Of a stretch of 64,000 nt of DNA, positions 1,106 to 59,123 are shown piece by piece. Both the position numbers and the translations under genes were made by a program. The first letter of the stretch is position 1; the number at the start of each line of letters is the position of its first letter. Origin of the DNA: Alphaproteobacteria bacterium (GTDB taxonomy: Bacteria > Pseudomonadota > Alphaproteobacteria > UBA9219); NCBI GenBank assembly GCA_028683655.1, contig JAQUHK010000002.1, positions 996-64,995 of the forward strand, in the 5' to 3' direction. The notes below the pieces were generated by a model, which was given only the letters and a program-made list of their open reading frames with translations, did no database searches and was not told the origin of the DNA.

Positions 1106-1168
1106 CTAACCCTTTGAAAAGCGTGGTGGGTGCGACAGGGATTGAACCTGTGACCCCTACCGTGTGAA
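1106..1168. repeat. Direct repeat copy 1 of tRNA-Val 3' half plus 3' flank (att-like, distal island boundary)
   Basis: ctaacccYttgaaaagcgtggtgggtgcgacagggattgaacctgtgacccctaccgtgtgaa recurs near-identically at 38852..38916 and 59031..59095. The last copy overlaps the intact tRNA-Val. Confidence 0.8.
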
Positions 1169-1346
1169 CGGACAAAGAAGGACGGAAATGCTGGAAAATC
1201 AGTGCGTTATTGTGCATCAAAAGTCGCCAAATGTCGTCTTGTGCAGCCCATAACTCACACATGACTCGCACAAACTTCTTTTCAGTTGTTATATTGCTAC
1301 CCCAGCCATGCTTGCCGGATTGATGATGTTAGGCGATGTTATGGGC

Positions 1347-1757
1347 TTATCCAATGTCGAGGTGCTGGATGAACTTCTTGGCTTTTTCTCTACCAAGATA
1401 ACATCTTAAGAACCAAGCTTTCTCACGGGGCGTGGCGGGGCGTAGTTCACCTAGAAAGGAACTCGTGAGAACAATTGTCTGGTTATCTTTGCCAAAGATT
1501 TTGCGGCGGCTGATGAGTCTCTCAATTTCTTCGGGGCTCTTGTTGGCTACCCATACCCGCGTTTTATTCAGCCATTGATAGTGGGGAAGAGAGTAGTCGG
1601 CGTCACAGTTGTCCCAAAATATAACTTTCTTCCCGTCTCGTGAGGGATACAGTGCACCAGCAAAGGGGTTCTCAGCCATCCTCGCACCACCATTATAAAC
1701 CGTGGCAATTGCCTGCAGTGGCAGGGAACCATTGTGCGGGCGTATCGGCGTTTCCAT
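1347..1757 (-). CDS. Hypothetical protein (136 aa)
   Basis: ORF only; no recognisable motifs. Confidence 0.35.
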   Translation of the reverse strand: METPIRPHNGSLPLQAIATVYNGGARMAENPFAGALYPSRDGKKVIFWDNCDADYSLPHYQWLNKTRVWVANKSPEEIERLISRRKIFGKDNQTIVLTSSFLGELRPATPREKAWFLRCYLGREKAKKFIQHLDIG

Positions 1758-2378
1758 TTAGAAGAACCTCAATAGTGTTTGGTAAGAACATCAGTTGTAT
1801 TGGATCGACAGAAAGCTGGGTCATGCCCTGCGCAAACAGCCGTTGTTTGTTGCACAAGGTGCCGAAGTTTTGGCAAGAAAAGCACTCTCGAACTGAAGAT
1901 GCGAGGGCGTCTTAAGCGCGACAAGCTGGTAGGCAGGGCCATCTGCATAAACAATCGAAGGCAGACTTTGATAATCACTTATGGTTTCGATCAGAGCTGG
2001 CATTTACAATTTCTACACATAAAAATGGCATTCAGTGTGACAGCGAATGACAACTGGCCCATTGTCTTTTTTTGTGTATCTGAACGTTTCCGCGGATAAC
2101 TAATAACTCTAACTGAATGAGATCAAAAGGAAAGACATTCTTTATGACAACTCATGCTTATCGATCCGTTGGGTTCATAGGCTTGTAACACATTGTTATA
2201 TATATGATCTCATTTAGGCCAATGACGTTAAATTAAGAAGAAAAACTAGACAATATCAATAGGTTGGGTCTATCTTCGCCTGTATCAGAGTCAAGTCAAT
2301 ATACCCGTAGTTTCTAAAAGTTTCCCTTTCATGGGGACAACTCATGAGTTCCTCTCGTAAGAAAGTTTGATTGATACA

Positions 2379-4688
2379 ATGAACCAAGCCACGCACAACA
2401 AGATAGTCTCCTTTGTTTGGGGCATTGCGGATGATGTATTAAGGGACTTATTCAAACGTGGCAAATACCCTGATGTCATCCTTCCGATGTGCGTGTTGCG
2501 GCGATTGGACGCCGTGTTGGAGCCGACAAAGCAAGCGGTAATCGATACGAAAAAGATGCTCGATGATGCGCGCATTACCGAGCAAGGGCAGGCTCTCTGC
2601 TCAGCCGCAGGACAGGCTTTCTACAACATTTCACGGTTTACTCTACGCGACCTCAAATCACGCGGAAGCCAGCAACAGCTATTGGCAGATTTCGAAGATT
2701 ATCTAAATGGGTTTTCTCAGAACGTTCAGGATATTCTTGAGAACTTCAAGTTCAGAAATCAGCTCTCGACACTTTCAAAAAGCGATGCACTCGGAACCTT
2801 AATCAACAAGTTCCTTGATCCTGAATTTGATCTTTCGCCCACTGGCATCGACAACCATTCAATGGGGACAGTATTTGAAGAGCTTGTCCGTCGCTTTAAC
2901 GAAGAGAACAATGAAGAGGCCGGAGAGCACTGGACACCTCGCGATGCCGTAAGTCTGATGGCAAATCTTGTTTTCCAGCCTATTGAGAAAGACCTCAAGT
3001 CTGGAACCTACCTTCTTTACGATTGTGCGTGTGGAACAGGCGGTATGCTAACCGTTGCTGAAGAAACGTTGAAGGGCATTGCTAAAAAACGAAAGATAGA
3101 TATCAACGCGGCTCTGTATGGACAGGAAATCAATCCTGAAACCTATGCTATCTGCAAAGCCGATATGATTTTAAAGGGTGAAGGAGAAAACGCCAATCAC
3201 ATCGTAGGCGGCGCTGAGTGGTCAACTCTTTCGCATGATGCCTTTCCGGCGCGAGAATTCGACTTTATGTTGGCCAACCCTCCTTATGGAAAAAGCTGGA
3301 AAAAAGATTTAGAGGCGATGGGTGGCAAAGATGGCATCCGCGATCCTCGCTTCAAAGTTATGCTCAACGATGAGGAATTGTCGTTAGTGACGCGGTCAAG
3401 CGATGGGCAGATGCTTTTCCTTGCCAACATGGTTTCCAAAATGAACGACAAGTCATCTTTGGGTAGCCGCATAGCCGAGGTTCATAACGGAAGCTCACTT
3501 TTCACAGGAGATGCAGGACAAGGTGAAAGCAACATTCGCCGTTGGATCATTGAGAGTGATTGGTTAGAAGCTATCGTCGCGCTCCCGCTTAATATTTTCT
3601 ACAACACGGGCATTGCAACTTACATTTGGGTGCTGTCGAACAGGAAGCCAAAACACCGCAAAGGAAAAGTTCAGCTTATTGACGCAAGCCAATGGTTTGA
3701 GCCGTTACGGAAAAACCTTGGCAAAAAGAGCTGCAAGTTAAATGAAGAAAATATAGACCGCATTATGCGCACATTTTTGGAGTTTAAAGAAACTCCGGAG
3801 TCCAAGATTTTCTCCAACGAGGCTTTTGGTTATTGGAAAGTGACCGTTGAAAGGCCGTTACGCCTGAACAGTCAGTTCTCAGTGAAGGCCATTGAGCCCT
3901 TGCGTTACGCGTCCGGTGATGAGGACATTCGAACCATTCTTTATGATGAATTCGGAGATAAGCTTTTCACCAACTTTAAATCCATTCTGCCCAGCCTTGA
4001 GAAGAGGCTTGAGGAATGGGGCGGCGATGAAGATCAGACTGATGCGGATGGTGATGAAGAAACACCCGCTAAGAAAGGGCTCGCAGAAAAGAAGAAAAAG
4101 AAGCTTCTTGACCCTAAAACGTGGGAGCGCGATGGGCGTTTGGTTGATGTAGCCAATAAGCTAAGAGCTGAGCTTGGCGATAAGCTTTATGATGACCACA
4201 ACGCATTCCGCGCCAAGCTCGATGAAGTTCTTAAACGGCTTGATATAAAACTTCCCGCTTCGGAACTGAAACAAATTATCAAAGCTGTGAGCTGGCAGGT
4301 TGAAACGGCTCCCCCCGTGATTGCAAAAGTTCATAAGGCAGGCAAGATAAAGGCTGACCCGATCCATGGGCTGTTTGAGGTTACGCTGAACGGTAAGGCG
4401 GCCATCGTTGAATATGAGACTGACAGTGATTTGCGCGATACAGAGCAAGTCCCCTTGCTTGAAGAAGGTGGCATCGAAGCTTTTATCCAGCGCGAGGTTC
4501 TTCCCTACACGCCGGATGCTTGGATCAAAGAAGGCGCAACCAAGATTGGGTATGAAGTCAGCTTCACCCGCCACTTCTATAAGCCAAAGCCACTGCGCAC
4601 GTTAGAGGAGATCAGCAAAGATATCCTCGCGCTTGAGCAGGAAACGGAAGGTTTGTTGGATGATTTGTTAAAAGGAGGCTCGAAGTGA
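2379..4688 (+). CDS. hsdM: Type I restriction-modification system, N6-adenine DNA methyltransferase subunit HsdM (long C-terminal extension)
   Basis: HsdM N-terminal domain pattern; DCACGTGGML motif I; LANPPYG (NPPY) motif IV. Track ORF starts at TTG 2367; first ATG is at 2379. Confidence 0.9.
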   Translation: MNQATHNKIVSFVWGIADDVLRDLFKRGKYPDVILPMCVLRRLDAVLEPTKQAVIDTKKMLDDARITEQGQALCSAAGQAFYNISRFTLRDLKSRGSQQQLLADFEDYLNGFSQNVQDILENFKFRNQLSTLSKSDALGTLINKFLDPEFDLSPTGIDNHSMGTVFEELVRRFNEENNEEAGEHWTPRDAVSLMANLVFQPIEKDLKSGTYLLYDCACGTGGMLTVAEETLKGIAKKRKIDINAALYGQEINPETYAICKADMILKGEGENANHIVGGAEWSTLSHDAFPAREFDFMLANPPYGKSWKKDLEAMGGKDGIRDPRFKVMLNDEELSLVTRSSDGQMLFLANMVSKMNDKSSLGSRIAEVHNGSSLFTGDAGQGESNIRRWIIESDWLEAIVALPLNIFYNTGIATYIWVLSNRKPKHRKGKVQLIDASQWFEPLRKNLGKKSCKLNEENIDRIMRTFLEFKETPESKIFSNEAFGYWKVTVERPLRLNSQFSVKAIEPLRYASGDEDIRTILYDEFGDKLFTNFKSILPSLEKRLEEWGGDEDQTDADGDEETPAKKGLAEKKKKKLLDPKTWERDGRLVDVANKLRAELGDKLYDDHNAFRAKLDEVLKRLDIKLPASELKQIIKAVSWQVETAPPVIAKVHKAGKIKADPIHGLFEVTLNGKAAIVEYETDSDLRDTEQVPLLEEGGIEAFIQREVLPYTPDAWIKEGATKIGYEVSFTRHFYKPKPLRTLEEISKDILALEQETEGLLDDLLKGGSK

Positions 4689-6787
4689 AAGCGACTGAAG
4701 CCAAACTTCTCGATTTCCTGAAGAAATCACCACAGTTCGTTATTCCGATTTATCAGCGTACCTATTCGTGGACAGAAAAGGAATGCAGACAGCTTTGGGA
4801 CGACATTGTTCGCACGGGTGCTGATGATCATATCTCGGTGCATTTTGTTGGGTCTATAGTTTACATCGATAAAGCTGACTCCACGGTCACAACGTGGGAG
4901 CCGCTACTCGTTATCGATGGACAACAACGGCTGACAACTGTGACGCTGCTCATTGCTGCGCTTGCCAATGCCCTTGGGGATAGGGAGCCAGTTGATGGTT
5001 TCTCCGCTGATGCCTTGCGGGGGTACTATCTTATGAACCCGTTGGAAAAAGGTGAGCGTAAATTAAAACTGCTCCTTTCCCAAACGGATAAAGCGACGCT
5101 AATCAACATTGTTTCGGGCCAAGATAGACCGAAAGAATATTCCCTGCGCGTCGACCAGAACTTCAAGCTCTTTGAGGGTTTGATTGCAGCAAACCAAAGC
5201 AATTTGGAGGCCGTGTGCAAGGGCTTGGTTAAGCTGATGATGGTGGACATCAAACTCAAACGTGGGGACGACAACCCGCAGCTTATCTTTGAAAGCATGA
5301 ACTCCACGGGCAAAGAACTAAGCCAAGCAGACCTAATCCGTAATTATATCCTGATGGGATTGGAGCCGGAACTGCAAACGAGGCTGTATGAGCAGTATTG
5401 GCGTCCTATGGAAGTGGATTTCGGACAGGAAGCCTATAGCAGTTATTTTGACGCGTTCATGCGGCATTACCTCACGGTGAAAACTGGCGAGATACCGCGC
5501 ATAGACGAAGTCTATGAGGCATTTAAGGCTCACGCCTGCTCACCTGCCGTCGTGGCCACTGGCATTGAAGAGATTGTAAAAGATATTCGTTCTTTTGCGC
5601 GGTTCTTCTGCGCCATGGCGCTTGGTGCTGAGACGGATAAGGAACTCAATCAAGCTTTCCATGATTTGCGTGAGCTGAAGGTTGATGTCGCTTATCCCTT
5701 TCTTTTGGAATTGTATGATGACTACGCCAATGGAAGGCTGAGTGTTGAAGACTTTGTTGCGGCTGTTCGCTTGGTTGAAGCTTATGTGTTCCGCCGTGCT
5801 GTATGCGCCATACCAACAAACTCTATGAACAAGACCTTTGCTACCTTTAACAAGGTTCTTAAAAAAGACAGATACCTTGAGAGCATTCAGGCGCACTTCC
5901 TCACGCTGCCATCCTATCGTCGCTTCCCAAGTGATGAGGAGTTCCGCCGAGACCTTGTTATCCGCGATCTTTATAACTTGAGAACCCGTAGTTATTGGCT
6001 AAGACGGCTCGAGAACCATGGGCGCAAAGAGCGTGTCGTGGTTGATGAATACACCATCGAGCATATTATGCCGCAGAACCCCAACCTGTCAGCGGCATGG
6101 AGGGAAGCCCTTGGCGCTGAGCATGAACGGGTGCAGGAGCAATGGCTCCATACCCTCGGAAATCTTACGCTTACGGGATACAATGCTGAATACAGCGACC
6201 GACCCTTCGTTGAAAAACGTGATATGAAGGGCGGATACAAGGAAAGCCCGCTTAAACTCAACGCAGGTCTTGGGCAACTCGAAAATTGGAATGAGACAGC
6301 AATCCAAGAACGTGCGGCGCGTCTTGCAGATCAAGTTCTTATTGTATGGCGTGCGCCAAAGCTAGATGCGGAAACGTTGGCTGCCTATAAGCCCGTTACG
6401 CCTGAGGGAACAGACTCTTTCACGATTGATGACCATCCACACTTACTCGCGCCTTCTATGCGAGAAGTTTTTGAGGCCTTTCGCAAGGAAGTGCTCGCCC
6501 TTGATCCCTGTGTCACAGAAACATTCTTGAAGCTTTATGTAGCGTATAAGGCCGAGACAAACTTTGTCGATGTGGTGCCACAGGCCAAAGGGTTCCGCCT
6601 TAGCCTGAATATGCGTTTTAATGAGATTAATGATCCCAAGGGACTTTGTCTCGACACAACAAACAAGGGGCGCTGGGGTAATGGTGATGTTGAAGTGCGC
6701 CTGAAATCGCTTGATGAGTTGCCCTATGTCATGGGGCTTGTTCGCCAATCCTATGAACGTCAGATGGGTGATGGTGTCCAATCATGA
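4685..6787 (+). CDS. DUF262/DUF1524 (GmrSD-like, ParB-like N-term plus HNH-like C-term) putative Type IV restriction nuclease embedded in the hsd operon
   Basis: IPIYQRTYSW and VIDGQQRLTT (DGQQR) motifs of DUF262. C-terminal YTIEHIMPQNP His-Me finger-like (DUF1524). GTGA overlap with the hsdM stop. Confidence 0.8.
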   Translation: MKATEAKLLDFLKKSPQFVIPIYQRTYSWTEKECRQLWDDIVRTGADDHISVHFVGSIVYIDKADSTVTTWEPLLVIDGQQRLTTVTLLIAALANALGDREPVDGFSADALRGYYLMNPLEKGERKLKLLLSQTDKATLINIVSGQDRPKEYSLRVDQNFKLFEGLIAANQSNLEAVCKGLVKLMMVDIKLKRGDDNPQLIFESMNSTGKELSQADLIRNYILMGLEPELQTRLYEQYWRPMEVDFGQEAYSSYFDAFMRHYLTVKTGEIPRIDEVYEAFKAHACSPAVVATGIEEIVKDIRSFARFFCAMALGAETDKELNQAFHDLRELKVDVAYPFLLELYDDYANGRLSVEDFVAAVRLVEAYVFRRAVCAIPTNSMNKTFATFNKVLKKDRYLESIQAHFLTLPSYRRFPSDEEFRRDLVIRDLYNLRTRSYWLRRLENHGRKERVVVDEYTIEHIMPQNPNLSAAWREALGAEHERVQEQWLHTLGNLTLTGYNAEYSDRPFVEKRDMKGGYKESPLKLNAGLGQLENWNETAIQERAARLADQVLIVWRAPKLDAETLAAYKPVTPEGTDSFTIDDHPHLLAPSMREVFEAFRKEVLALDPCVTETFLKLYVAYKAETNFVDVVPQAKGFRLSLNMRFNEINDPKGLCLDTTNKGRWGNGDVEVRLKSLDELPYVMGLVRQSYERQMGDGVQS

Positions 6788-8136
6788 TTGCTGATTTGAA
6801 GCCATATCCAGAGTACAAGCCAACCGATCAGGTTTGGATTGGTGATGTACCCGCGCATTGGAAAGTTTTACCAAATCGTGCGCTGTTTGCTGAGGTGAAG
6901 GATCGAGACAATGTTGACGAAGAAATGCTGTCCGTTACTATAAAACGAGGCATTGTTCAACAGAGAGCCCTACTTGCATCAGGATCGAAGAAAGACAGTT
7001 CAAATTTAGACAAGTCGGCTTACAAGCTCGTGCGGCCACACGATATTGCTTACAATAAAATGAGAGCTTGGCAGGGAGCAATAGGCGCATCAGATCTTCG
7101 TGGAATCATAAGTCCCGCTTATGTCGTTATGCGCCTACGTGAAGATTATAACCTCTCGCGCTATTTTCACCATCTATACCGAACGCCGCAGTTTGCAAAG
7201 GAAGCTGAACGATGGTCTTACGGAATAACATCAGATATGTGGAGTCTGCGGCCTGAGCATTTTAAAATGATTTATACTCCTGAGCCGCCACCCACTGAGC
7301 AGTTCGCAATTAACCGTTTCTTAGATTGGGCGAATGGGAGGTTTGAGCGGGCGATTAAGGCTAAACGCAAAATGATTGCGCTGTTGAATGAGCAGAAGCA
7401 GAGCATCATTCACCGTGCCGTAACCCAAGGCCTTGATCCCAACGTTCCCCTCAAACCCTCCGGCATTCCCTGGCTTGGCGATATCCCCGCTCATTGGAAA
7501 ATATCTAGGGTCAAGAACGAGTTTCGTTGTTTGAACACACAAAGAGTTCCTCTAAATGCTGTCGAACGCGGAGCAATGACTTCACGAATCTACGATTACT
7601 ATGGGGCATCAGGTATTATTGATAAGGTTGATGCTTTTCTTTTTAATGATGACCTGCTTCTGATTGCGGAGGATGGGGCCAACTTAGTGCTTCGCAATCT
7701 TCCCCTCGCGATAATTGCTAGGGGTAAGTTCTGGGTTAATAACCATGCACATATCCTTAAGCCGAAACGAGGCAGCCTTGTTTATCTCGCTCATCTTCTT
7801 GAGACGTTGAGCTACAATCCTTGGATCTCTGGAGCAGCACAGCCAAAGCTAACGCAAGATCGACTAATGTCTATTTCCATCGCGGTTGCACCACCAGAAG
7901 AGCAAGATGCAATTGTTGCTTATACGACTGAGCAAACTCGTCCGTTAATAACAGCCATTACACGCCTTGAACATGAAATAGAACTCCTTCGCGAATATCG
8001 CACACGGCTTGTGGCCGATGTCGTTACAGGTAAACTTGATGTGCGTGAGGTAGCAAGAAATCTACCTGATCTTCAGAAGGATGAAATTTTTCTTGAATCA
8101 GAGGGTGATATTATGTCCGAGTTGGAGGAGGCGTGA
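6784..8136 (+). CDS. hsdS: Type I RM specificity subunit HsdS (two target-recognition domains)
   Basis: Two repeated TRD halves with conserved central and C-terminal coiled-coil spacers (LITAITRLEHEIELLREYRTRL). ATGA overlap with the upstream gene. Confidence 0.85.
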   Translation: MIADLKPYPEYKPTDQVWIGDVPAHWKVLPNRALFAEVKDRDNVDEEMLSVTIKRGIVQQRALLASGSKKDSSNLDKSAYKLVRPHDIAYNKMRAWQGAIGASDLRGIISPAYVVMRLREDYNLSRYFHHLYRTPQFAKEAERWSYGITSDMWSLRPEHFKMIYTPEPPPTEQFAINRFLDWANGRFERAIKAKRKMIALLNEQKQSIIHRAVTQGLDPNVPLKPSGIPWLGDIPAHWKISRVKNEFRCLNTQRVPLNAVERGAMTSRIYDYYGASGIIDKVDAFLFNDDLLLIAEDGANLVLRNLPLAIIARGKFWVNNHAHILKPKRGSLVYLAHLLETLSYNPWISGAAQPKLTQDRLMSISIAVAPPEEQDAIVAYTTEQTRPLITAITRLEHEIELLREYRTRLVADVVTGKLDVREVARNLPDLQKDEIFLESEGDIMSELEEA

Positions 8137-8786
8137 CCATGCCGAATCCTCCCACAAACCCGAAGATATATCATATTGCTCATGTGGATCGTTTGGCTTC
8201 CGTTATAGAATCAGGGGGATTGCTATCAGACTCGGTTATGTGTCAACGGGCAGGAGCTGGAACCACGATAGGGATGGGGAAAATTAAGCAAAGGCGGCTT
8301 TCTTTGGCTATTGAGTGCCATAGAGATACATATGTTGCGGATTATGTTCCGTTCTACTTTTGTACTCGCTCTGTCATGCTATATTTGATATATATGGGGA
8401 ATCATCAGGACTTGACTTATCGTGGAGGGCAAGGCCCCATCGTTCATATGGAATCCGACTTATCTGAAGTTGTGGATTGGGCCAATGAACAGGGACGTAA
8501 ATGGTGCTTTTCTTTGTCCAACGCTGGGGCGTGTTATACTGAGTTCCGTAACGACTTAACCCAACTTAGTGAAATTAATTGGCCTGCTGTCATGGCTACC
8601 GACTTTCGTCAGGCCGATATCAAGGAAGGTAAACAAGCCGAGTTTTTGCTTCATGGTTACTTCCCATGGCATCTAGTTCGGCGGATCGGTGTACATTCAA
8701 CGGCTGTAGCGCAACAGGTATATGCTGCTACGCAAGGAGCTGATCATCGTCCACCTGTCGAAATACGGACTGAGTGGTATTACTGA
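8133..8786 (+). CDS. darT: DarT (DUF4433) ssDNA ADP-ribosyltransferase toxin
   Basis: KIYHIAHVDRLASVIESGGLL, YVPFYFCTRSVMLY, KQAEFLLHGYFPW and C-terminal EWYY match DarT hallmark motifs. Overlaps the hsdS stop (GTG 8133, or ATG 8139). Confidence 0.8.
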   Translation: MTMPNPPTNPKIYHIAHVDRLASVIESGGLLSDSVMCQRAGAGTTIGMGKIKQRRLSLAIECHRDTYVADYVPFYFCTRSVMLYLIYMGNHQDLTYRGGQGPIVHMESDLSEVVDWANEQGRKWCFSLSNAGACYTEFRNDLTQLSEINWPAVMATDFRQADIKEGKQAEFLLHGYFPWHLVRRIGVHSTAVAQQVYAATQGADHRPPVEIRTEWYY

Positions 8787-8803
8787 AAAGAGGGGAGGTC
8801 AAA

Positions 8804-17436: not shown

Positions 17437-17443
17437 GACACAA

Positions 17444-47463: not shown

Positions 47464-47467
47464 TGGT

Positions 47468-51100: not shown

Positions 51101-51426
51101 GCGCATTCCCTAGCTATCGCCCGTTGGGTCAGCTTGTTACGAAGCTGAATTTCAAACTCGGAGCCGTACAGGCTACTTTCACGGTTCGCCTTGGGAATAA
51201 AGAACTCGCGTCGTTCCTTGCGAACCTTATCCGTGACTTCGTTGGTAACAAACGTTGGGGCGGTGAAAATGAATTCTAGGGACTCGACCTTGGACAATTC
51301 AGCCTTCAACGCCTCGTAAGCATAAATCGAAAAACATGACGCCGCGATCTTTACCCTGGACTTCGGTGAAAGCGATGTCTTTAGGTCGTCGCCAAGTAGA
51401 GCATTTATGTTGTCGATTATTTTCAT
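48154..51426 (-). CDS. SNF2-family helicase (1090 aa)
   Basis: ILADSVGLGKTFTALAVV (motif I); VVIDESHNFRN (DExH); C-terminal helicase domain with QRFGRIDRIGS. Confidence 0.85.
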   Translation of the reverse strand: MKIIDNINALLGDDLKTSLSPKSRVKIAASCFSIYAYEALKAELSKVESLEFIFTAPTFVTNEVTDKVRKERREFFIPKANRESSLYGSEFEIQLRNKLTQRAIARECAEWIRDKATFRSNRTKAQMQQFICIADDEQQTAYAPLHGFTAVDLGYQPGDAVSNIVNRFGDSAHTATYLQLFNRIWNDPAKLEDVTSAICDHIESVYQENAPERIYFQMLYNIFNEFLEDINEDVLPNDRTGYQESLVWKKLFNYQRDAAVGIINKLETYNGCILADSVGLGKTFTALAVVKYYELRNKSVLVLCPKKLADNWLNYNKNLKTNIFAQDRFGYDVLCHTDLSRTSGESFGMRLDRVNWGNYDLVVIDESHNFRNNEVFKERETRYQKLMNKVIREGVKTKVLMLSATPVNNRFNDLKNQLALAYEGESDTLNEKLKTKRSIEEIFRRAQSAFNAWSELPPEQRTARAILDKLDFDFFEVLDSVTIARSRKHIETFYDTKDIGKFPERRKPISIHCPLTQRTDVMGFNDIFGQLSLLKLAVYAPISYILPSRLKKYEDIYDTEVSGGGGKLKQADREIALKALMTTNLLKRLESSVESFRLTLETLEGKLTNTLTTIAKFEAGQDIGVSDFTEDVEDRLEGDEDNIDELDDGNSVSGKVKISLSDMDVPRWKDDLNGDLQLIHTLLESMRKITPEDDAKLQDLKTRIVGKIANPINGGNKKVLIFTAFADTAQYLYKNIAGIQTDINVAVVTGQGAPKSTLGTGYDYQSVLTLFSPRSKEKTLVMPDEMGELDILIGTDCISEGQNLQDCDYLINYDIHWNPVRIIQRFGRIDRIGSPNASIQLVNYWPDISLDEYINLKERVENRMIIADVTATGDDNVLTAKSSEVAYRKEQLRRLQEEVIELEDLKTGVSITDLGLNDFRMDLINYVKQHGDLEDAPKGMHAVVSAEPDLGLKPGVIFALRNRNNGVNINQQNRLHPYYLIYIAKDGEIIANHTEAKKLLDLVRTSSKGYDEPIATVCRLFNSETDDGRNMKPYSDLLGAAIRSMIEVKEEKDLDSLFSGGKTTALVNAISGLDDFELIAFLVIQEGQEK

Positions 51427-51799: not shown

Positions 51800-52201
51800 T
51801 TAGTCCATCAATGGAAACAAACACCTAGCATACTTCAGCACCTCGCCCACACGTTGCAGTGTCAATTCAGCATCGGCCTTGGATATGTCGTTAGGGAGGC
51901 TCCAGTCGTGGGCTTCACGCAGGACTTTGACGTCTCCTACGATGCCCCAAGCTTCCTTCATTGCATCGGACGTTGTTCTGGCATTCCAGATATGGGTTGC
52001 GAACTTCTCAAAGATTTCATCTGACGGGGTGGCAGGCTCATTGTCGAGCTGGGTCATGTAACTGGCCGCTATGGTATCCGATGCTTGCAAAGCCAGCTTT
52101 TCACTTTCGGCATATTGACCTGTTTCAAGCGCGGATTGTGCCAGCCGGAGCTGTTCCGTTGCTTGATCGAATAGGGTTTGGCTGTGTGAGTTCATCATCA
52201 T
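51800..52201 (-). CDS. Conserved backbone hypothetical protein (133 aa), paralog of 27406..27861
   Basis: See the paralog. Confidence 0.5.
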   Translation of the reverse strand: MMMNSHSQTLFDQATEQLRLAQSALETGQYAESEKLALQASDTIAASYMTQLDNEPATPSDEIFEKFATHIWNARTTSDAMKEAWGIVGDVKVLREAHDWSLPNDISKADAELTLQRVGEVLKYARCLFPLMD

Positions 52202-53445
52202 GCCGTTAATGAGAAAATCGGGTTGTATCTGGCCGCGTCGGGCGCAATGAGCGTCAAGGGACGGTTGGGCGCATCATGCCGCTCGGCAGCTTTGCGAAGA
52301 TCAAGGGATGCCGTTTGCATAGGCCTGCCGCCTAGCTCGCGCTGTTCTGCCCCCAAGGATTTAAGCGCGGCAACAATCTCTGGTTCCTGTAAAACATGAA
52401 TATGTATTGGTGGTGGCACAATGCCCAGCAAAGGGCTGGATCGCCTTGGCGACAACAAAACGATGTTCTGCGCCTTGAACAAAGCCGCATAAACATCCTG
52501 TAAACTCCCGCCGAGAGGAACAGCAGGGCTGGCCTCTTGCCGAGGCTTAGCGAGACTCCCCCAACCACGCTCACCGATCTCTTGCTCTGCCGCTTTCAGG
52601 ATGGAGGCTGCAACACATCGCAACACACCCGAATTGGGCATTTGGCCATTGCTCATAAACTGGCATTGCGTCACAGGCGTTCCCTTGAAGGTCGAAATGC
52701 CTTTGGTAAAGCTGGCCACCACTTTTTGCCGAGAGTCCGGACTTTCCCAACTCACGACAAAGTTATTGGGATCAATCGTGCCATCTGCACGCAGAACATA
52801 GCGAACCTCTACGGGTAGCTTGAATAGACCAGCAGGAAGGCGGCCACTGGCAATTTTCAGCAACGCACTGTCTTCACCGCGCCCAAGGGTCGCACCCAGA
52901 CTTTCCTGAACAGCGATAATCTTGCTGTTATAGGGAGCAAACTCGAAAGCTTGTCCCACAGGGATGATGCCATCCTTGAATCCATGCGTTGCGTAATAAT
53001 CTATGCTGGCTTGAATAAAGGGCAAGCCCAATCCGTTTCTTGGAAGAGACTTGGTTCGTGGCCTTTCAAGAATGATCTCGCGCATCTTTGCGGGAAGCAA
53101 AGCCACATCCTCGCTGTAGATGCCGTGATGAACATCTATGTCATTCCCGTTTCTTTGCAAGAAGAGTGACCGAAAGTTTATAGCCGCGCCAACAATTTTC
53201 GGATCACAAACATCCCACGCGGCAGCGAAGAACAAAACTTCCACATCATCGGTGGACATAGCCCTCATAACTTGGCGAAAGCCTACGGGATCGAATGCCG
53301 CGCCATGCACCTTGGCTTCGTACTGGATGGCATCGCGCAGCATACCGCCAAGCGTGCTGCAATGAATGACATCCGAGTCAATTTGCGGGAGAATGGCGAC
53401 GTTAAGGCCGCCCATGAGCTGCTGAAAGTTTTTTGTATCAATCAT
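52198..53445 (-). CDS. Conserved backbone hypothetical protein (about 415 aa), paralog of 27858..29090
   Basis: MIDTKNFQQLMGGLNVAILPQ start, same as the paralog. Confidence 0.55.
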   Translation of the reverse strand: MIDTKNFQQLMGGLNVAILPQIDSDVIHCSTLGGMLRDAIQYEAKVHGAAFDPVGFRQVMRAMSTDDVEVLFFAAAWDVCDPKIVGAAINFRSLFLQRNGNDIDVHHGIYSEDVALLPAKMREIILERPRTKSLPRNGLGLPFIQASIDYYATHGFKDGIIPVGQAFEFAPYNSKIIAVQESLGATLGRGEDSALLKIASGRLPAGLFKLPVEVRYVLRADGTIDPNNFVVSWESPDSRQKVVASFTKGISTFKGTPVTQCQFMSNGQMPNSGVLRCVAASILKAAEQEIGERGWGSLAKPRQEASPAVPLGGSLQDVYAALFKAQNIVLLSPRRSSPLLGIVPPPIHIHVLQEPEIVAALKSLGAEQRELGGRPMQTASLDLRKAAERHDAPNRPLTLIAPDAARYNPIFSLTA

Positions 53446-53522
53446 TGTTGCGACACCCATAATTTGAGGAGCCAAACTAATCCGAGCGTATCACAAAATC
53501 CTCTACCTGTACTGGGGGCTTA

Positions 53523-54176
53523 TTACTTTCGTTTCTTTTTGGGCAGGCCGGAGCTTTTTGCCCAGAAAGCATCAAATTCTCGCATATATCGCTGGGCGAC
53601 CTGCTTGGAATAGATGGTTAAGCATTCGCGTTTGGAAGCGTTATCTGTCAGCGGGATCACGACATAGTCCCCATACAGATACCACGGGGTCACGTCTTTG
53701 AACTCGTCGTCGAGGAGCTTATAGCTGCAATAGCTTACCGGAGCCCCCAACTCACCTTCCTGCACAAGAACCTTGGCATCCAGTCCTTCGATGGCAGCCA
53801 TGCGCTTGATATGCTCGGCGGCGTAATCGTCGGCAATTGGCATATAACGCGCATCCCCGAAATTGAACTGGCGGATGCGCCCGCCTTTGCGAACGGTTTC
53901 ATAGATATGGTCGAGAAGCTGGCGATAGCCTGTTTTGCCGCTATAGGTACGCATCTGGTGCTTGCGGACGCAAACGCCTTCATTCTCGGTAAACTCGATC
54001 CCTTCCTGATCCAGAACGGTCAGGATACGCGCCAGTGTTCTTTCTTGCGGCTGCACGGTTTCGTTTTCAATCTGGCGGATCGTCAGGCGCGTAATCTCGC
54101 ATTGATCGGCCAGTTCTTCCATTGACCAACCGAGAAGCCCGCGTGCGCCCCGTATCTGTCTGCCTGTAATGCTCAT
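53523..54176 (-). CDS. XRE-family HTH regulator (217 aa), near-identical to 29168..29821
   Basis: Paralog. Confidence 0.7.
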   Translation of the reverse strand: MSITGRQIRGARGLLGWSMEELADQCEITRLTIRQIENETVQPQERTLARILTVLDQEGIEFTENEGVCVRKHQMRTYSGKTGYRQLLDHIYETVRKGGRIRQFNFGDARYMPIADDYAAEHIKRMAAIEGLDAKVLVQEGELGAPVSYCSYKLLDDEFKDVTPWYLYGDYVVIPLTDNASKRECLTIYSKQVAQRYMREFDAFWAKSSGLPKKKRK

Positions 54177-54495
54177 AACGCTTCATCCTTCTAAAATAAT
54201 CATTATGGTTGTTTATAACATATGAATATGAAGAAAGCGAGAACATTTTTAGGGCGTAACGGTTGTGATCTGTAAAAAAATGTTTGGTTATCGCGGCACA
54301 AAACAGTCATATTTTCTCTATAACCATTATATATCAACATATTAATAGTGATAATCCGATATGAAAGCCTTTTGCAATCATTTTGTATATTCGTATTGAC
54401 ATGGCAACAAAATCGTGCTAGCGTGCCATCAGATCATTAAGAAACTTTATACGCGCACAGTAAAAACCGATTTTTATAACCAAAGGATGAAGACC

Positions 54496-55017
54496 ATGAA
54501 AAAATCCCTCAAGAGAACGACCCACAAGGTCAGGACGGGGCAGGCTCCATGTCCCGAACGGTTTCAGCACGGCGGCGGGTTGCGCCGCGACCTCATCAAA
54601 AGTCACGACAAGAGAAAGCCTTCCACGTTGCGGTATCGCGCCCGCTGGTCAAGCCCGCTTGACCGCTATTGCGAGATGAAGCTGATCGGCTATGCCCAAT
54701 ATGAGGCGGGCATCCGGTTCTGGAAGGCCTATCACCGTGCCGTATCTGGCGGAGCCGCTTGTTCAGCCCGTGCCAGCCGGATCGATAGCCCTGCGCGGCT
54801 TTGCCTGCCGGATCGTTTGCGCCGTGCCTTTGCTTGTGTCGAACAAGCCTATGCCGTCCTCACCGCCGACGTGCTTGGTGTTGTGATCGACGTATGCGCT
54901 TATGACCAACCGGCGGCCAGCCCGCAGGAGCTAGACCTCTTACGCAAAGGCCTTGGCCGTTTGGCGCAAGAATGGGGGATAGCAGCATCGGAGCTGTGCC
55001 ACCGAAAGAAAGGATAA
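54496..55017 (+). CDS. Conserved backbone hypothetical protein, paralog of 30139..30660
   Basis: Paralog. Confidence 0.5.
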   Translation: MKKSLKRTTHKVRTGQAPCPERFQHGGGLRRDLIKSHDKRKPSTLRYRARWSSPLDRYCEMKLIGYAQYEAGIRFWKAYHRAVSGGAACSARASRIDSPARLCLPDRLRRAFACVEQAYAVLTADVLGVVIDVCAYDQPAASPQELDLLRKGLGRLAQEWGIAASELCHRKKG

Positions 55018-55069
55018 CCCCAAACCCGTTTTATACTCGGTCAGTCATTTTAAGAGTGAACATTACCGA

Positions 55070-55102
55070 CCCCCAGTCCGGCCAGACTGGGGGTTTCTTT
55101 TT
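55070..55102 (+). terminator. Rho-independent terminator (copy of 30712..30744)
   Basis: Same hairpin plus T-run. Confidence 0.6.
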
Positions 55103-55189
55103 GCTTAGATCAGATCGTGAAAAGGTTGGCGGCTACGCCTGCCAACCATTCGCGTGAATCTGATCGATAATCAAAGAAAGGAGGCCCCT

Positions 55190-55774
55190 ATGTCCTCAGA
55201 CACAAGCAACCGCCCGCCCATCACCCCTCTGTTCCGCCACACAGCCCGCGCCGTGTGTCGCCCATTGAGTCTGTACGACAGCCTTAAAAATCCAGCCCCG
55301 CCGCAAAGAGGCGAGACGCAGGAACGGTCAGACATTTTGTCTGACAAAAAAGCTAAAAGCTTCGCGCAAGTTGCGCCTTCGGTCAGACCACCAGTGGTCA
55401 GACCAAAGCCATGCGAGCTAAAGCTCGGAAGAGAAAGGCCTCATCGTCTGATGGCACGTTTCAATGACGATGAAAAAGCTTTAGTTCAACGCAAAGCCAA
55501 AACAGCCCGTCTGTCTTTAAGCGAATATATCCGCGTCTCTGTTCTGGGGGATGTCTATGTCTCGACCGTTGATCCGGAGCGGCAAAAGCTCCTGCACGAG
55601 CTGAGCCGCGAGCTTGGCAAGCAGGGAAGCAATCTTAACCAGATCGCCAAACACCTCAACACACGCGGGGAGTCCCAGCAAGGCGAAGGCATGCTGGCGG
55701 AACTCTTTGACTCGCTGGTCGCCGCTCACAACGCCGTGCGCCGCGCCATGGCAGAAAGGAAGCGTTATGAATGA
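55190..55774 (+). CDS. mobC: MobC-family mobilization protein (island B)
   Basis: RLSLSEYIRVSVLG; NLNQIAKHLN. aaggagg RBS. Confidence 0.8.
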   Translation: MSSDTSNRPPITPLFRHTARAVCRPLSLYDSLKNPAPPQRGETQERSDILSDKKAKSFAQVAPSVRPPVVRPKPCELKLGRERPHRLMARFNDDEKALVQRKAKTARLSLSEYIRVSVLGDVYVSTVDPERQKLLHELSRELGKQGSNLNQIAKHLNTRGESQQGEGMLAELFDSLVAAHNAVRRAMAERKRYE

Positions 55775-56523
55775 TTATCAAATCAACCATACGCGGCGGC
55801 TATCTTTCGGCGGCCCAATATATGAAGGATATTGGCGAGAACGAGAAAACGCGCCTTGTCGAACTGAGCGACCCAGAGGCCAAGAACCTCGACGATGCCT
55901 TTCAAAAAATGTGGGAGGTCGCTTGCCCGACCAAGGTCAAGAAGCCACTTCACCACATCAGCATCAACCCGATGAAGGGCGAGCATCTGACCGACAAGCA
56001 GGTTCTGGCCATCGCGGACAGGTGCGAAGAGCTTTACGGCTATAAAATGTTTCATCACCAGCGGGTGATTGTCGAACATATCAAGGACGGGCGGCAGCAC
56101 TTTCACGTTATCTGGAACCGTGTGAGCCTTGTCACGGGCAAGACAGTCTGGCCGGGGCATCACTGGAAAAAGTCGAAGCAAGTCGCCCGCGAGATGGAAG
56201 AGCGTCTAGGCCTTAAACGGCCTCAGCCAAGGGGCAAGGCGATCAAAAAGACTACAAGCAGCAAAACGAGAGCGGTGAAACCGCGTTCGTCTGGATTGCG
56301 TTTATCCAGTCCGGACAGGAAACCGCCCCAAACAAAAAGCAAGTCCCTGTTACCGACGGCAAGCCACAGACCAGCGCAAAAGAAGTCCGAACCGCCGCCG
56401 CCGATGCAGCCCATGCACCCCAAGAAAAAACGTTGGCCGGATCAAGCCATCATCGACTGGGAAGTCTGGGGTCATCTATGGCCAAAGCGTTTCTTCGCGC
56501 TCTGGCCGGAACTTATTCCCTGA
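55771..56523 (+). CDS. MobA/MobL-type relaxase (island B)
   Basis: Paralog of 31414..32157. Confidence 0.75.
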   Translation: MIIKSTIRGGYLSAAQYMKDIGENEKTRLVELSDPEAKNLDDAFQKMWEVACPTKVKKPLHHISINPMKGEHLTDKQVLAIADRCEELYGYKMFHHQRVIVEHIKDGRQHFHVIWNRVSLVTGKTVWPGHHWKKSKQVAREMEERLGLKRPQPRGKAIKKTTSSKTRAVKPRSSGLRLSSPDRKPPQTKSKSLLPTASHRPAQKKSEPPPPMQPMHPKKKRWPDQAIIDWEVWGHLWPKRFFALWPELIP

Positions 56524-56781
56524 ACAGCAAAGGAGGAACATGCCACCAAACCGCATTAAAACAAAATCATTTACCCTCTCGAAACACAAACGCCGCGTTT
56601 ATCGCGTCATGGAGGAAAACACAGCCACAGTATTCTTTTTATCAAAAACCCAAGCCGCTCTTTACGTCCTCGGACGGCAACTGATGAAGATGATGGACAA
56701 ACAGCAATAAACCACAGACCCGCTCCGCAAGGAGCATTTTTTAACCCCGCCCGCCGGAACGCCTTCCGAGCGGGATTTTTT

Positions 56782-57774
56782 ATGGAGAAATACATGGAAC
56801 AGACGAACAAATTTAACATCTACAGCCACGTCACGGACAAAATCATCGCCGATCTCGAAAAGGGCGTTCGTCCTTGGCAGAAACCTTGGAACTCTGCCCA
56901 TACCAGCGGGCGCATTGTCCGCCCGCGCCGTCATAATGGCCTGCCTTACAACGGAGTGAACATTCTGCTTTTGTGGAGCGAGGCCTATGACAAGGGCTAT
57001 CAAAGTCCCACATGGATGACGTTCCGGCAAGCGCAAGAATATGGCGGTCATATCCGCAAGGGGGAGAAGTCTTGCACAGTTGTTTATGCCAGCACTTTCA
57101 GCAAAGCGGAAACAGATGAAACCACCGGACAGGATATTGAAAAGGATATTCCCTTCCTGCGGGGTTATCGGGTCTTTAATGCCGAGCAAATCGAAGGCCT
57201 GCCGGAAAGGTTCACCGTTCAACCAGAGGGCAGCAGTCTTTCCAAACCTGAGCGGCTTGATCTTGTCGATCAGTTTATCCGCAACACCGGAGCAGATTTG
57301 CGCCATGGCGGTGACAGAGCCTTTTATGCCGAGAAAGCGGATTATATCCGCATGCCTCGCATCGAAGCCTTCAAAGACCCTGAAAGCTATTACGGCACGC
57401 TGACGCATGAGCTGACGCACTGGACAAAGCACAAAAGCCGCCTTGACCGCACTTTTGCAACCGACAGCAACGCGCCAAGAAGCTTTGGGGATGAATCTTA
57501 TGCCAAGGAAGAACTCGTTGCCGAAATCGGCTCGGCCTTCTTGTGTGCTGATCTCGGCATCACGCCCGACGTGCGCGAAGACCACGCAGCCTATATCGGC
57601 CACTGGCTCAAGGCTCTGAAAGATGATCGCAAGCTGATCTTCTCAGCCGCCGCTCACGCAGGCCGCGCCGCCGATTATCTCAAAGACCTGCAGAGCAAAG
57701 TCACCTGCACGCCAACACTGCCCACAACAACGGTGCAGCCGTCTTTGTCCACAACAACCCCAGCCCAACACTAA
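56782..57774 (+). CDS. ardC: ArdC-like antirestriction protein (island B)
   Basis: HELTHWTKH; paralog of 32864..33856. Confidence 0.8.
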   Translation: MEKYMEQTNKFNIYSHVTDKIIADLEKGVRPWQKPWNSAHTSGRIVRPRRHNGLPYNGVNILLLWSEAYDKGYQSPTWMTFRQAQEYGGHIRKGEKSCTVVYASTFSKAETDETTGQDIEKDIPFLRGYRVFNAEQIEGLPERFTVQPEGSSLSKPERLDLVDQFIRNTGADLRHGGDRAFYAEKADYIRMPRIEAFKDPESYYGTLTHELTHWTKHKSRLDRTFATDSNAPRSFGDESYAKEELVAEIGSAFLCADLGITPDVREDHAAYIGHWLKALKDDRKLIFSAAAHAGRAADYLKDLQSKVTCTPTLPTTTVQPSLSTTTPAQH

Positions 57775-57789: not shown

Positions 57790-58149
57790 ATGGACGATCA
57801 AACCGTCGTCATGCCAGCGAGACACTTCACCGTGCAATCGCTGGCCGCCTACTGGGGCGTATCTCCCAGCCATATTTACAACCTGATCCATTCAAACGCC
57901 CTGCACCACATGCGCATCGGCAAAGCCATTCGTATCCCATCCATTTTTGTCAAAGAATTTCAGGAGGCAGCATGTCAATTAACAACGATTTCTACCGTTT
58001 GTGGCAACACGATAACGGAACTTGGTACATCATCTGGTCACCACAAGGCGAAGAAAAAACGAACGCCCGTGGAACAAAGCGCATATCAACGAGGACAGGA
58101 GATCGCCGTGAAGCGGAGCAATTCCGAGCCCAGTTCATCGCGGGACTAA
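57790..58149 (+). CDS. Excisionase-like HTH protein (putative Xis, island B); 3' end overlaps the integrase
   Basis: FTVQSLAAYWGVSPSHIYNLIHSNALHHMRIGKAIRIP is HTH-like. Confidence 0.4.
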   Translation: MDDQTVVMPARHFTVQSLAAYWGVSPSHIYNLIHSNALHHMRIGKAIRIPSIFVKEFQEAACQLTTISTVCGNTITELGTSSGHHKAKKKRTPVEQSAYQRGQEIAVKRSNSEPSSSRD

Positions 58150-59006
58150 ACAACGAAACACCAAAGGAAGAACCAACGATAGCAGAACTGTTAAAGCTTT
58201 ATAGGAATCAACATGGCGTCAATACGCGCTCGTTGAAAACGATTGATTATCATCTCAAAACACTTCGGCCTTTTTTCGGAGATTTGTTGCCATCCCACGT
58301 TAGTAATAATTTGCTGAAAGAATATGTCGCTCAGCGTGGCGTTAAGGCTGGCACAATTTTGCGCGAACTTGGTACACTTAAAGCCGCTTTACATTATGCA
58401 GAAGGCAACAGATGGATTGAGAGACAACCGCAGTTCATCATGCCAGTTAAGTCTCCGCCGCCGCGTGATCTGTGGTTGAAGAGGGAGGAGGTGGTCATGC
58501 TTATAGAAAAGGCAAAATCTCCACATATCGCTCTTTTTATCAAAATTGCTGTTTCCACTGCGGCGCGGTCAGGGGCGATCCTTGATCTGAAGTGGGATCA
58601 GTTGGACATGGAGCAGCGGATCATTGACTTCGGTAGGGGCTATGGCAACAAGCGTCGGTCTATCGTCCCTATGAATGACGCGGTTTATGAAGCCCTGCTT
58701 GAGGCAAAGGAACTTGCTCAAACGGATCATGTGATTGAGTACAACGGAAGGCCAACGAGAGCTATCAAAAAGGCCTTCAGCCGTCTGTGCGAGTCATGTG
58801 GGATTAAGGCCAGTCCCCACGTCCTACGCCACACGGCCGCGACATGGCTGGTCATGGACGGGGTGCCATTGTCTGAGGTTGCCCGTCTGTTGGGAGACAG
58901 TGAGAAGACGGTTGAAACCGTTTACGGCAAACACTCGCCGGATTATCTCCGCCGAGCTGTAACAGCCCTAAATCTCACGAAAAACAAGCCCGTGTTACAG
59001 CTGTAA
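57972..59006 (+). CDS. int: Tyrosine-type site-specific integrase (island B), adjacent to tRNA-Val
   Basis: HVLRHTAATWLVMDGVPLSEVARLLGDSEKTVETVYGKH. Confidence 0.85.
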   Translation: MSINNDFYRLWQHDNGTWYIIWSPQGEEKTNARGTKRISTRTGDRREAEQFRAQFIAGLNNETPKEEPTIAELLKLYRNQHGVNTRSLKTIDYHLKTLRPFFGDLLPSHVSNNLLKEYVAQRGVKAGTILRELGTLKAALHYAEGNRWIERQPQFIMPVKSPPPRDLWLKREEVVMLIEKAKSPHIALFIKIAVSTAARSGAILDLKWDQLDMEQRIIDFGRGYGNKRRSIVPMNDAVYEALLEAKELAQTDHVIEYNGRPTRAIKKAFSRLCESCGIKASPHVLRHTAATWLVMDGVPLSEVARLLGDSEKTVETVYGKHSPDYLRRAVTALNLTKNKPVLQL

Positions 59007-59030
59007 CACCGTTTCTGTGGGCCCACCACG

Positions 59031-59095
59031 CTAACCCCTTGAAAAGCGTGGTGGGTGCGACAGGGATTGAACCTGTGACCCCTACCGTGTGAAGG
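59031..59095. repeat. Direct repeat copy 3 (overlaps the intact tRNA-Val 3' half)
   Basis: See the other repeat copies. Confidence 0.8.
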
Positions 59096-59123
59096 TAATG
59101 CTCTACCGCTGAGCTACGCACCC
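59049..59123 (-). tRNA. tRNA-Val (anticodon CAC), 75 nt including CCA
   Basis: Reverse complement folds as a cloverleaf: acceptor GGGTGCG/CGCACCC, D-arm GCTC..GAGC, anticodon stem TTACC/GGTAG, loop TTCACAC, T-arm ACAGG-TTCAATC-CCTGT, then CCA. Confidence 0.85.

Follow-up and report, generated by a model that had tools for sequence, protein, structure and literature searches.

Tandem accretion of integrative and mobilizable elements (IMEs), integrative and conjugative elements (ICEs), as well as cis-mobilizable elements (CIMEs), at the 3' ends of tRNA genes has been well described, including tandems of elements whose distantly related integrases share a specificity and relic CIMEs located beside intact elements (PMC5704250). 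The ICESt1/ICESt3-CIME arrays of Streptococcus thermophilus and IME_Sag2603_tRNAlys, found in tandem with a decayed ICE, are examples given in the same review (PMC5704250). In a bacterium related to the host considered here, Micavibrio aeruginosavorus ARL-13, islands of 11-27 kb have been reported, several of them tRNA-flanked, with integrases and mob genes (PMC3189940). This work deals with a stretch of 64,000 nt (the window, whose coordinates are used throughout) from an uncultured alphaproteobacterium related to Micavibrio. The DNA between positions 940 and 59030 is, in all likelihood, strain-specific material that results from repeated site-specific integration at the 3' end of a tRNA-Val(CAC) gene, and consists of two complete IMEs in tandem (units A and B) plus a 166-nt relic. 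The architecture of the attachment (att) sites, the intact recombination and relaxosome genes, the lack of a mating pore, the presence or absence of the array in different strains and the recurrence of the family at this tRNA can be read directly from the sequence. Loci from other genomes or metagenome contigs used for comparison are labelled L001-L025.

The window contains a single tRNA gene, which is intact. A 32-nt core from its 3' half is found in exactly three plus-strand copies, at 1126, 38872 and 59051, with 0 copies expected by chance (100 dinucleotide-preserving shuffles). Extension and alignment gave a full repeat of 63 nt, formed by an 18-nt flank (CTAACCC[T/C]TTGAAAAGCG) and 45 nt of the tRNA-Val 3' half. 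The three repeats are all in direct orientation, their starts lying 37,746 and 20,179 nt apart; a single mismatch is found in copy 1, and no difference separates copies 2 and 3 over 65 nt. A preliminary description of this DNA had reported a 65-nt repeat, made of the tRNA-Val 3' half and about 18 nt of flank, present three times and delimiting units of 37.7 and 20.1 kb; the copies, their coordinates and the unit sizes agree with our data, the full repeat measuring 63 nt. The resulting organization is as follows:

1106-1168, plus strand: att copy 1, distal junction (18-nt flank and 45 nt of the tRNA-Val 3' half)
1169-38851, plus strand: unit A, 37.7-kb IME between att copies 1 and 2 (A-type int/xis cassette)
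38852-38914, plus strand: att copy 2, unit A/unit B junction (repeat alignment)
38915-59030, plus strand: unit B, 20.1-kb IME between att copies 2 and 3 (B-type int/xis cassette)
59031-59093, plus strand: att copy 3, tRNA-proximal junction (repeat alignment)
59049-59123, minus strand: tRNA-Val(CAC), integration target (ARAGORN)

Across loci, the 18 nt located directly past the CCA end of tRNA-Val exist as two alleles, CTAACCCCTTGAAAAGCG and CTAAGTCTCTGATTTAGA (sites compared: window 59031-59048, L013 2676-2694 and L023 11212-11229). Since the relic, unit A and unit B all have the first of them (CTAACCCCTTGAAAAGCG), identity in the window extends over 63 nt, and the functional att core is probably the 45-nt tRNA-Val segment. 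Each allele can form a small hairpin with adjacent bases, and a conserved structural role may be suspected from this, for example in tRNA 3' processing or termination.

Pfam scans identified in each unit its own integrase, xis-like helix-turn-helix (HTH) protein, ArdC, relaxase and MobC, as had been proposed in the preliminary description. The corresponding genes are:

27406-29821, minus strand: unit A backbone operon (HTH_3 regulator, 410-aa protein and 151-aa protein)
29168-29821, minus strand: unit A HTH_3 regulator (Pfam)
27858-29090, minus strand: unit A 410-aa protein, tandem-GNAT-like predicted fold
27406-27861, minus strand: unit A 151-aa protein, no function assigned
30130-33856, plus strand: unit A mobilization module (Pfam)
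30130-30660, plus strand: unit A 176-aa protein
30833-31417, plus strand: unit A NikA/MobC (Pfam)
31414-32157, plus strand: unit A relaxase, short MobA/VirD2-type (PF03432; Pfam)
32864-33856, plus strand: unit A ArdC (ArdcN and MPTase-PolyVal; Pfam)
33789-35272, plus strand: A-type recombination cassette (Pfam)
33789-34289, plus strand: unit A xis-like HTH_17 protein (Pfam)
34112-35272, plus strand: Int A, tyrosine integrase (PF00589; Pfam)
51800-54176, minus strand: unit B backbone operon (HTH_3 regulator, 425-aa protein and 133-aa protein)
53523-54176, minus strand: unit B HTH_3 regulator (Pfam)
52198-53475, minus strand: unit B 425-aa protein, tandem-GNAT-like predicted fold
51800-52201, minus strand: unit B 133-aa protein, no function assigned
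54415-57774, plus strand: unit B mobilization module (Pfam)
54415-55017, plus strand: unit B 176/200-aa protein
55154-55774, plus strand: unit B NikA/MobC (Pfam)
55771-56523, plus strand: unit B relaxase, short MobA/VirD2-type (PF03432; Pfam)
56782-57774, plus strand: unit B ArdC (ArdcN and MPTase-PolyVal; Pfam)
57790-59006, plus strand: B-type recombination cassette (Pfam, NCBIfam)
57790-58149, plus strand: unit B excisionase-family HTH_17 protein (Pfam; NCBIfam TIGR01764 'excise')
57972-59006, plus strand: Int B, tyrosine integrase (PF00589; Pfam)

BLAST comparison of the two units showed 83% DNA identity between 27804-32147 and 52144-56513, and 89% between 32613-33852 and 56529-57770, the similarity stopping at the ArdC stop codon. 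At the protein level, identity is highest for the HTH regulator (97%), followed by MobC (91%), ArdC (90%), the 176-aa protein (87%) and the relaxase (85%), and drops to 67% in the 410/425-aa protein, 43% in the 151/133-aa protein and 34% in the integrases; the xis-like proteins gave no BLAST match to each other. The earlier estimate of backbones 75-95% similar is therefore adequate for the mobilization core and does not extend to the integrases and xis-like proteins of the recombination module or to the 410/425-aa and 151/133-aa pairs. The catalytic R, HxxR and Y residues are invariant in both integrases, as are the relaxase motifs (N-terminal Tyr residues and HxH histidine triad) between A and B, and all the recombination and mobilization open reading frames (ORFs) of both units are full length. 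These comparisons indicate that the units share one mobilization and regulation backbone, on which the int/xis cassette has been swapped. In both cassettes the xis-like and integrase ORFs overlap by 178 nt in different frames (33789-34289/34112-35272 and 57790-58149/57972-59006), and likewise in L002, which could correspond either to a true gene overlap or to over-long ORF calls. The near identity of the HTH regulators suggests that cross-regulation between units A and B might take place. The 410/425-aa protein, which in every case is encoded right downstream of the HTH_3 regulator, had no match in Pfam, NCBIfam or PADLOC, and the 425-aa version has just 29 homologues at E <= 1e-5 among 5.8 billion proteins. 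Its AlphaFold model (pLDDT 78) shows a weak likeness to tandem-GNAT acyltransferases (Eis2, MAB_4324 and N-myristoyltransferase).

A relaxase-based scan of 185,579 species representatives (one genome per species) retrieved only 10 loci, all of them in uncultured Alphaproteobacteria, Micavibrio or 'Bdellovibrionales' metagenome-assembled genomes (MAGs). The family has a common gene order: HTH regulator and 425-aa protein in one block and, in the other, 176-aa protein, MobC, relaxase, (ArdC), xis and int. That of unit B is the same as in L002, L004, L005, L015 and L020, whose integrases are 66-73% identical to Int B; these B-type integrases adjoin tRNA-Val(CAC) in L002, L004, L015/L016 and L020, and tRNA-Gly(GCC) in L005. 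As for the A-type, the integrase of L023 is 89% identical to Int A and belongs to a 9.8-kb element with a perfect 45-nt copy of the tRNA-Val 3' half on either side (1359-1403 and 11230-11274), and that of L025 (77% identity) lies upstream of tRNA-Val and the same response regulator/histidine kinase pair as in the window. Both integrase types are thus found at tRNA-Val in other genomes. The order tRNA-Val, response regulator, histidine kinase is also present in L002, L015, L020, L022 and L025, and no fewer than four other alphaproteobacterial genomes (L002, L015/L016, L020 and L025) have the family at this locus. In L022 there is no integrase near the tRNA, and a CIME-like, int-less island of 5 kb is located between att repeats of 45-47 nt. 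The tRNA-Val locus is a heavily used hotspot in the clade related to Micavibrio. Exact-protein look-ups with the response regulator, Int B and the product of the first unit A gene returned nothing, or just a 1.2-kb contig ending at the att repeat. Two side observations concern these relatives. Upstream of the A-type integrase of L025 (1-9445) there are two giant ORFs of 2,391 and 2,557 aa that join sigma-70 regions, DEAD/ResIII helicase, RNase III and dsRBD domains in an unusual architecture. In two Micavibrio-like MAGs, 115-nt tandem repeats adjoining the intact tRNA duplicate the 5' half of tRNA-Val and upstream sequence (L002 16224-16568 and L020 5777-5930).

Comparison with these loci allowed the ends of each unit to be recognized:

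1194-1274, plus strand: unit A left-end arm region (repeat ACTCACAC-ATG-ACTCGCACAAA), a candidate for Int A arm-type sites
38790-38827, plus strand: unit A right-end arm motif TTTAACTCGCACGGAGACTCGCACAAA, matching L023 and L025
58992-59009, plus strand: B-type right-end palindrome GTGTTACAGCTGTAACAC, overlapping the int B stop codon

The right-end motif of unit A is 95% identical over 38 nt to the sequence right past the int stop codon of L023, and is also found in L025; the left-end region, which contains ACTCACACATGACTCGCACAAA, shows 83% identity over 81 nt to the left end of L023, at an equal distance from att. The ACTCGCAC repeats present on both arms of unit A are good candidates for Int A arm-type sites. 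B-type elements have instead a palindrome whose TACAGCTGTA core is invariant and whose arms covary (ATTAT/ATAAT, GTGT/ACAC and AACAT/ATGTT). In all the B-type elements examined it is situated around 24 nt (34 nt in L004) to the left of the att repeat, and it overlaps the int stop codon in unit B and L005. Each unit is thus a complete element whose ends are those expected for its integrase type, a strong argument for two independent integrations. A single composite island, with an internal duplication of the mobilization backbone and the middle repeat as a by-product, would also account for two copies of a backbone of around 6 kb, in the same orientation and at one locus. However, DNA divergence between the copies amounts to 11-17%, the int/xis cassettes are either unrelated or 34% identical, the integrase-type-specific end motifs of each unit match those of single elements elsewhere, and the middle att copy falls exactly where the A-type right end gives way to unit B, all of which makes such an origin very unlikely. 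Because of this divergence (83-89% DNA identity), the unrelated cargo, the different int/xis cassettes and the type-specific ends, serial integration is favoured over duplication, and the units appear to have been acquired independently rather than duplicated in place. The preliminary description had likewise seen two family members integrated serially, with no recent duplication, and backbone divergence, cassettes and end motifs all agree with it. Three direct att sites separating elements of different integrase types with the same target form the arrangement expected from tandem accretion.

The flanks of the array are chromosomal:

1-939, no strand assigned: conserved left flank (99.3% identity to L019)
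59124-64000, no strand assigned: conserved right flank (Pfam; 98.1% identity to L013 and L014)
59303-60025, no strand assigned: OmpR-family response regulator (Pfam)
60012-61355, no strand assigned: histidine kinase (Pfam)
61692-63818, no strand assigned: DsbD (Pfam)

In the left flank, of which only the 5' part is included, a minus-strand gene runs past the window start; its product is a secreted 518-aa protein. Two loci, overlapping by 1,552 nt at 100% identity, give the equivalent region in a sister strain: L013, a JGI contig found through a 99% identical homologue of the response regulator adjoining the tRNA, and L019, from a 238-kb metagenome contig retrieved with a wobble-masked pattern of the left-flank gene. 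L013 is 98.1% identical to window 59049-64000, the match ending exactly at the tRNA 3' end; L019 is 99.3% identical to window 1-939, where homology ends, and continues with the same YcaO gene as L013. Between the conserved flanks there are 2,777 nt in the sister strain versus 58,110 nt in the window, so the array constitutes strain-specific accessory DNA. Those 2,777 nt comprise the YcaO gene, an ORF of 61 aa and, beside the tRNA, the diverged remnant of a B-type integrase end. The YcaO protein (611 aa) and the adjacent 61-aa ORF (L013 131-2374/L019 52-1422) could form a small pair of the type involved in ribosomally synthesized and post-translationally modified peptides.

This comparison bears on the possibility that the region is conserved core DNA and its repeats incidental tRNA-related sequence; related genomes with this DNA as conserved core and no repeats had been named beforehand as the result that would overturn the proposal. 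Nothing beyond the presence of a tRNA gene speaks for it; the sister strain lacks the whole region, relaxase relatives are limited to the 10 loci mentioned above, and GC content is heterogeneous (36% to 54%), so that its probability is practically negligible. A comparison with strains lacking the insertion had also been suggested, and the array is indeed absent from the sister strain, although its site is not clean, given the integrase-end remnant. L022 and L013 were both considered as empty sites and ruled out, the former because of its int-less att-flanked island and the latter because of this remnant; no virgin attB was found among the loci examined, L015/L016 and L020 being occupied by family members.

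The accessory DNA had been thought to start at 1106. Since homology with the sister strain ends at 939, its start has to be moved to 940, which leaves an additional segment in front of att copy 1:

940-1105, plus strand: 166-nt probable relic left by an older B-type element, from its right end (not in the sister strain; L004 match)

Positions 940-972 form a perfect hairpin, and the palindrome ATTATTACAGCTGTAATAAT at 1066-1085 is followed by TTTTT (to 1090). The sequence at 1066-1097 (32 nt) shares 94% identity with the L004 element at its right end. The palindrome is on the tRNA-proximal, element-derived side of every occupied site, that at tRNA-Gly included, and in L023 a B-type int-3' relic is located in front of the distal att copy. 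For these reasons the segment is read as the stump of an earlier B-type element, a probable relic of a third, older member of the family.

With respect to mobility, no domain of a type IV secretion system (T4SS) or coupling protein (T4CP), such as VirB4 or VirD4/TraG, was detected with Pfam in any ORF of at least 90 aa of either unit, and neither has room left for such genes. Both encode putative mobilization proteins, a PF03432 relaxase and NikA/MobC. The earlier proposal that relaxase and MobC without T4SS or T4CP fit an IME is borne out by these scans. Each unit would qualify as an IME by its own recombinase and excisionase-like ORF, direct att repeats at a specific target and absence of a mating pore. 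In the conserved intergenic region upstream of mobC there is a terminator, with a compensatory change in L005. Just upstream of mobC there is also a near-perfect hairpin of about 70 nt (GATCAGATCGTGAAAAGGTTGGCGGCTACGCCTGCCAACC..TTCGCGTGAATCTGATCGAT; 30736-30807 and 55094-55165), which is present only in A and B, being absent at the same position in L001 and L005. It may have arisen as a small inserted repeat, or may be a structure with a regulatory or oriT-related role. A phage-related nature would be in keeping with the tyrosine integrase, excisionase and XRE-type repressor found at the tRNA, and one weak relative of Int A (36% identity) was the only match to this integrase in IMG/VR. Prophages or phage satellites moving by transduction and not by conjugation are nevertheless extremely improbable here: the Pfam scan found no capsid, terminase, portal, tail, primase or replication genes in any ORF, relaxase, MobC and ArdC are conjugation-associated, and the relaxase has no relative in the viral contigs of IMG/VR. 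The relaxase had no sequence match in PDB.

The way in which these IMEs may move can be proposed from what is established for such elements with regard to excision, nicking, helper transfer, anti-restriction by ArdC and re-integration (PMC5704250). Each element, A, B or A+B, would excise between flanking att copies by means of its own integrase and excisionase-like protein. The circular form would then be nicked at an origin of transfer (oriT) by the MobA/VirD2-type relaxase with the NikA/MobC accessory protein, and the DNA would pass through the mating pore of a co-resident conjugative element (helper T4SS), with ArdC protecting the incoming DNA from restriction. Re-integration into tRNA-Val would leave the tRNA intact, as attP would supply its last 45 nt and the 18-nt flank. 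Since different int/xis/arm cassettes both target the same tRNA, an incoming element could integrate at an att site belonging to one already resident, leading to accretion. Cargo occupies two slots, one at the int-distal end and the other between int and att.

Several points weigh against this interpretation. No nic site or oriT could be assigned in the conserved region upstream of mobC; no excised circle, attP junction or empty attB was observed, the sister-strain site carrying a remnant; and no helper conjugative element was identified. The relaxase is short (250 aa), with at most 33.5% identity to plasmid MobC-associated relaxases. Assigning 940-1105 to a relic is based on a 32-nt match and a shared palindrome, and the palindrome at 1066-1085 could be native tRNA flank instead. 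Either order of arrival of A and B would lead to the same final layout of flanks. Some of these points would fit fossil islands, integrated in the past, now immobile and kept as a fixed defence island: decayed remnants pile up at the locus (940-1105, the integrase-end remnant of L013 and the int-less att-flanked island of L022), and activity is deduced from sequence. The full-length recombination and mobilization ORFs with intact catalytic residues, the 100% identity of att copies 2 and 3 over 65 nt, and the different content of strains with 98-99% identical flanks, indicative of recent turnover, are hard to reconcile with that idea, which we regard as unlikely. We thus retain repeated integration of complete IMEs as the preferred reading.

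The cargo of unit A is arranged as follows:

2367-12876, plus strand: type I restriction-modification (R-M) operon with embedded genes (Pfam, PADLOC)
2367-4688, plus strand: hsdM (Pfam)
4685-6787, plus strand: GmrSD-like nuclease (Pfam; PADLOC Orf5/HEC-06)
6784-8136, plus strand: hsdS (Pfam)
8133-8786, plus strand: DarT (PF14487, E=3e-62)
8774-9865, plus strand: macro-domain DarG-like protein (PF01661 Macro, E=3e-25)
9832-12876, plus strand: hsdR (Pfam)
13140-18315, no strand assigned: regulator block with three HTH_3 regulators, one LuxR/GerE regulator and small ORFs of no assigned function (Pfam)
18534-27105, plus strand: biosynthetic-looking cluster (Pfam, NCBIfam)
35429-38522, minus strand: cargo in the int A-att slot (Pfam, NCBIfam, PADLOC)
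35429-35902, minus strand: T5orf172/MUG113 protein, in the int A-att slot
36195-38522, minus strand: TrlF-/Ppl-like AAA ATPase, in the int A-att slot

The DarT gene adjoining the macro-domain DarG-like gene would constitute a DarTG toxin-antitoxin pair. At 13993-15158, a 214-aa HTH_3 protein, whose N-terminal 88 residues are 36% identical to the backbone HTH regulator, precedes a 174-aa protein of no assigned function; this pair mirrors the layout of the backbone HTH regulator and its partner, and may be a remnant or paralogue of the regulatory module. The cluster at 18534-27105 codes for a 351-aa class II ligase (AsnA/AsnRS-like), a SAM methyltransferase, an amidohydrolase, a radical SAM/SPASM enzyme, two truncated AlaRS paralogues (429 aa, a weak match, and 434 aa, catalytic domain only) and an MccF-like S66 LD-carboxypeptidase. 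Its product could be an aminoacyl-nucleotide or modified-peptide antibiotic, with the carboxypeptidase possibly having a role in self-immunity. Unit B carries the following cargo:

39098-51426, minus strand: unit B cargo block (Pfam, PADLOC)
39098-41377, minus strand: AAA_13 ATPase (PDC-S06; Pfam, PADLOC)
41398-44466, minus strand: type III Res (PADLOC REase_III, 1128 bits; Pfam ResIII, RE_endonuc)
44486-45535, minus strand: PLD-like protein
45532-47463, minus strand: type III Mod (PADLOC MTase_III, 703 bits; Pfam N6_N4_Mtase)
47468-48157, minus strand: DUF4391 protein
48154-51426, minus strand: SNF2 helicase

The PADLOC matches in this block were REase_III, MTase_III, C3a139 and PDC-S06, and the Mod methyltransferase together with the Res helicase-nuclease would make up a type III R-M system. 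Int A is 3.6 kb away from its att copy, with two cargo genes of low GC (36-41%) in between; degenerate extra att copies inside unit A, for instance right after Int A, were sought as an explanation for this cargo and none were found. In relatives the int-att slot holds an SMC/AAA_23 ATPase (L002 and L020), an AAA ATPase and an S8 peptidase (L015), or HEPN_AbiU2 and other genes (L025), and the presence of a different system in each of them points to a second cargo hotspot. As the cargo consists mostly of anti-phage defence, these elements would act as shuttles of defence genes.

The array offers a clean, well-delimited case of the movement and stacking of defence genes at a tRNA hotspot, in a clade that has received little study and is related to predatory alphaproteobacteria. 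Att cores, integrase arm sites and exchangeable recombination cassettes can all be named as concrete candidates. Turnover at the locus is very fast, as illustrated by the 58 kb versus 2.8 kb in strains with 98-99% identical flanks. No new principle is involved, since tandem accretion of IMEs with distantly related integrases of the same target had already been described. The family itself, whose relaxase is at most 33.5% identical to plasmid MobC-associated relaxases, appears to be undescribed. We would tentatively go further, with rather less than even confidence in the proposal as a whole, and suggest an undescribed IME lineage confined to uncultured Micavibrio-related alphaproteobacteria and combining four properties: it would be specialised on tRNA-Val(CAC) beside an OmpR-type response regulator/histidine kinase (chvI/chvG-like) pair; it would exchange whole cassettes of integrase, excisionase and arm sites (A-type ACTCGCAC, B-type TACAGCTGTA) while keeping one mobilization backbone; it would use a dedicated second int-att cargo slot to swap single ATPase-type defence systems; and it would be controlled by a family-specific module of HTH regulator and tandem-GNAT-like protein.

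Among known systems, SGI1 and the mobilizable genomic islands (MGIs) are gammaproteobacterial IMEs mobilized by IncC plasmids or SXT/R391 ICEs. Like them, the units described here are site-specific islands without a mating pore, with adaptive cargo and able to form tandem arrays; there is however no sequence relationship, the target is a tRNA gene and not trmE/thdF or yicC, and the window units have a canonical MobC-relaxase pair. The two-gene relaxosome with a MobA/VirD2-type nuclease domain (PF03432) resembles that of small mobilizable plasmids such as Acidithiobacillus ferrooxidans NC_001520, although relaxase identity is just 27-33% over the N-terminal 150-190 residues and, unlike those plasmids, the units are chromosomally integrated, with int/xis and without replication genes. 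Chromosomally integrated mobile elements can carry defence systems, with cargo dominated by R-M and other anti-phage systems. What sets this family apart from them is the existence of two cargo slots, the int-att one with a different ATPase-type system per genome. The islands of M. aeruginosavorus ARL-13, called ICEs and described in general terms, come from a related host, their likeness to the window units being one of description only (PMC3189940). The closest counterparts are the ICESt1/ICESt3-CIME and IME_Sag2603_tRNAlys arrays, with which the locus shares three direct att sites, stacking at one tRNA 3' end, distantly related integrases acting on one target, decayed relics beside intact elements and the possibility of single or composite excision (PMC5704250). 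It differs from them in being known from sequence alone, in its host, uncultured alphaproteobacteria related to Micavibrio, in its target, tRNA-Val(CAC), and in that both units are IMEs with an 83-89% identical backbone and swapped int/xis.

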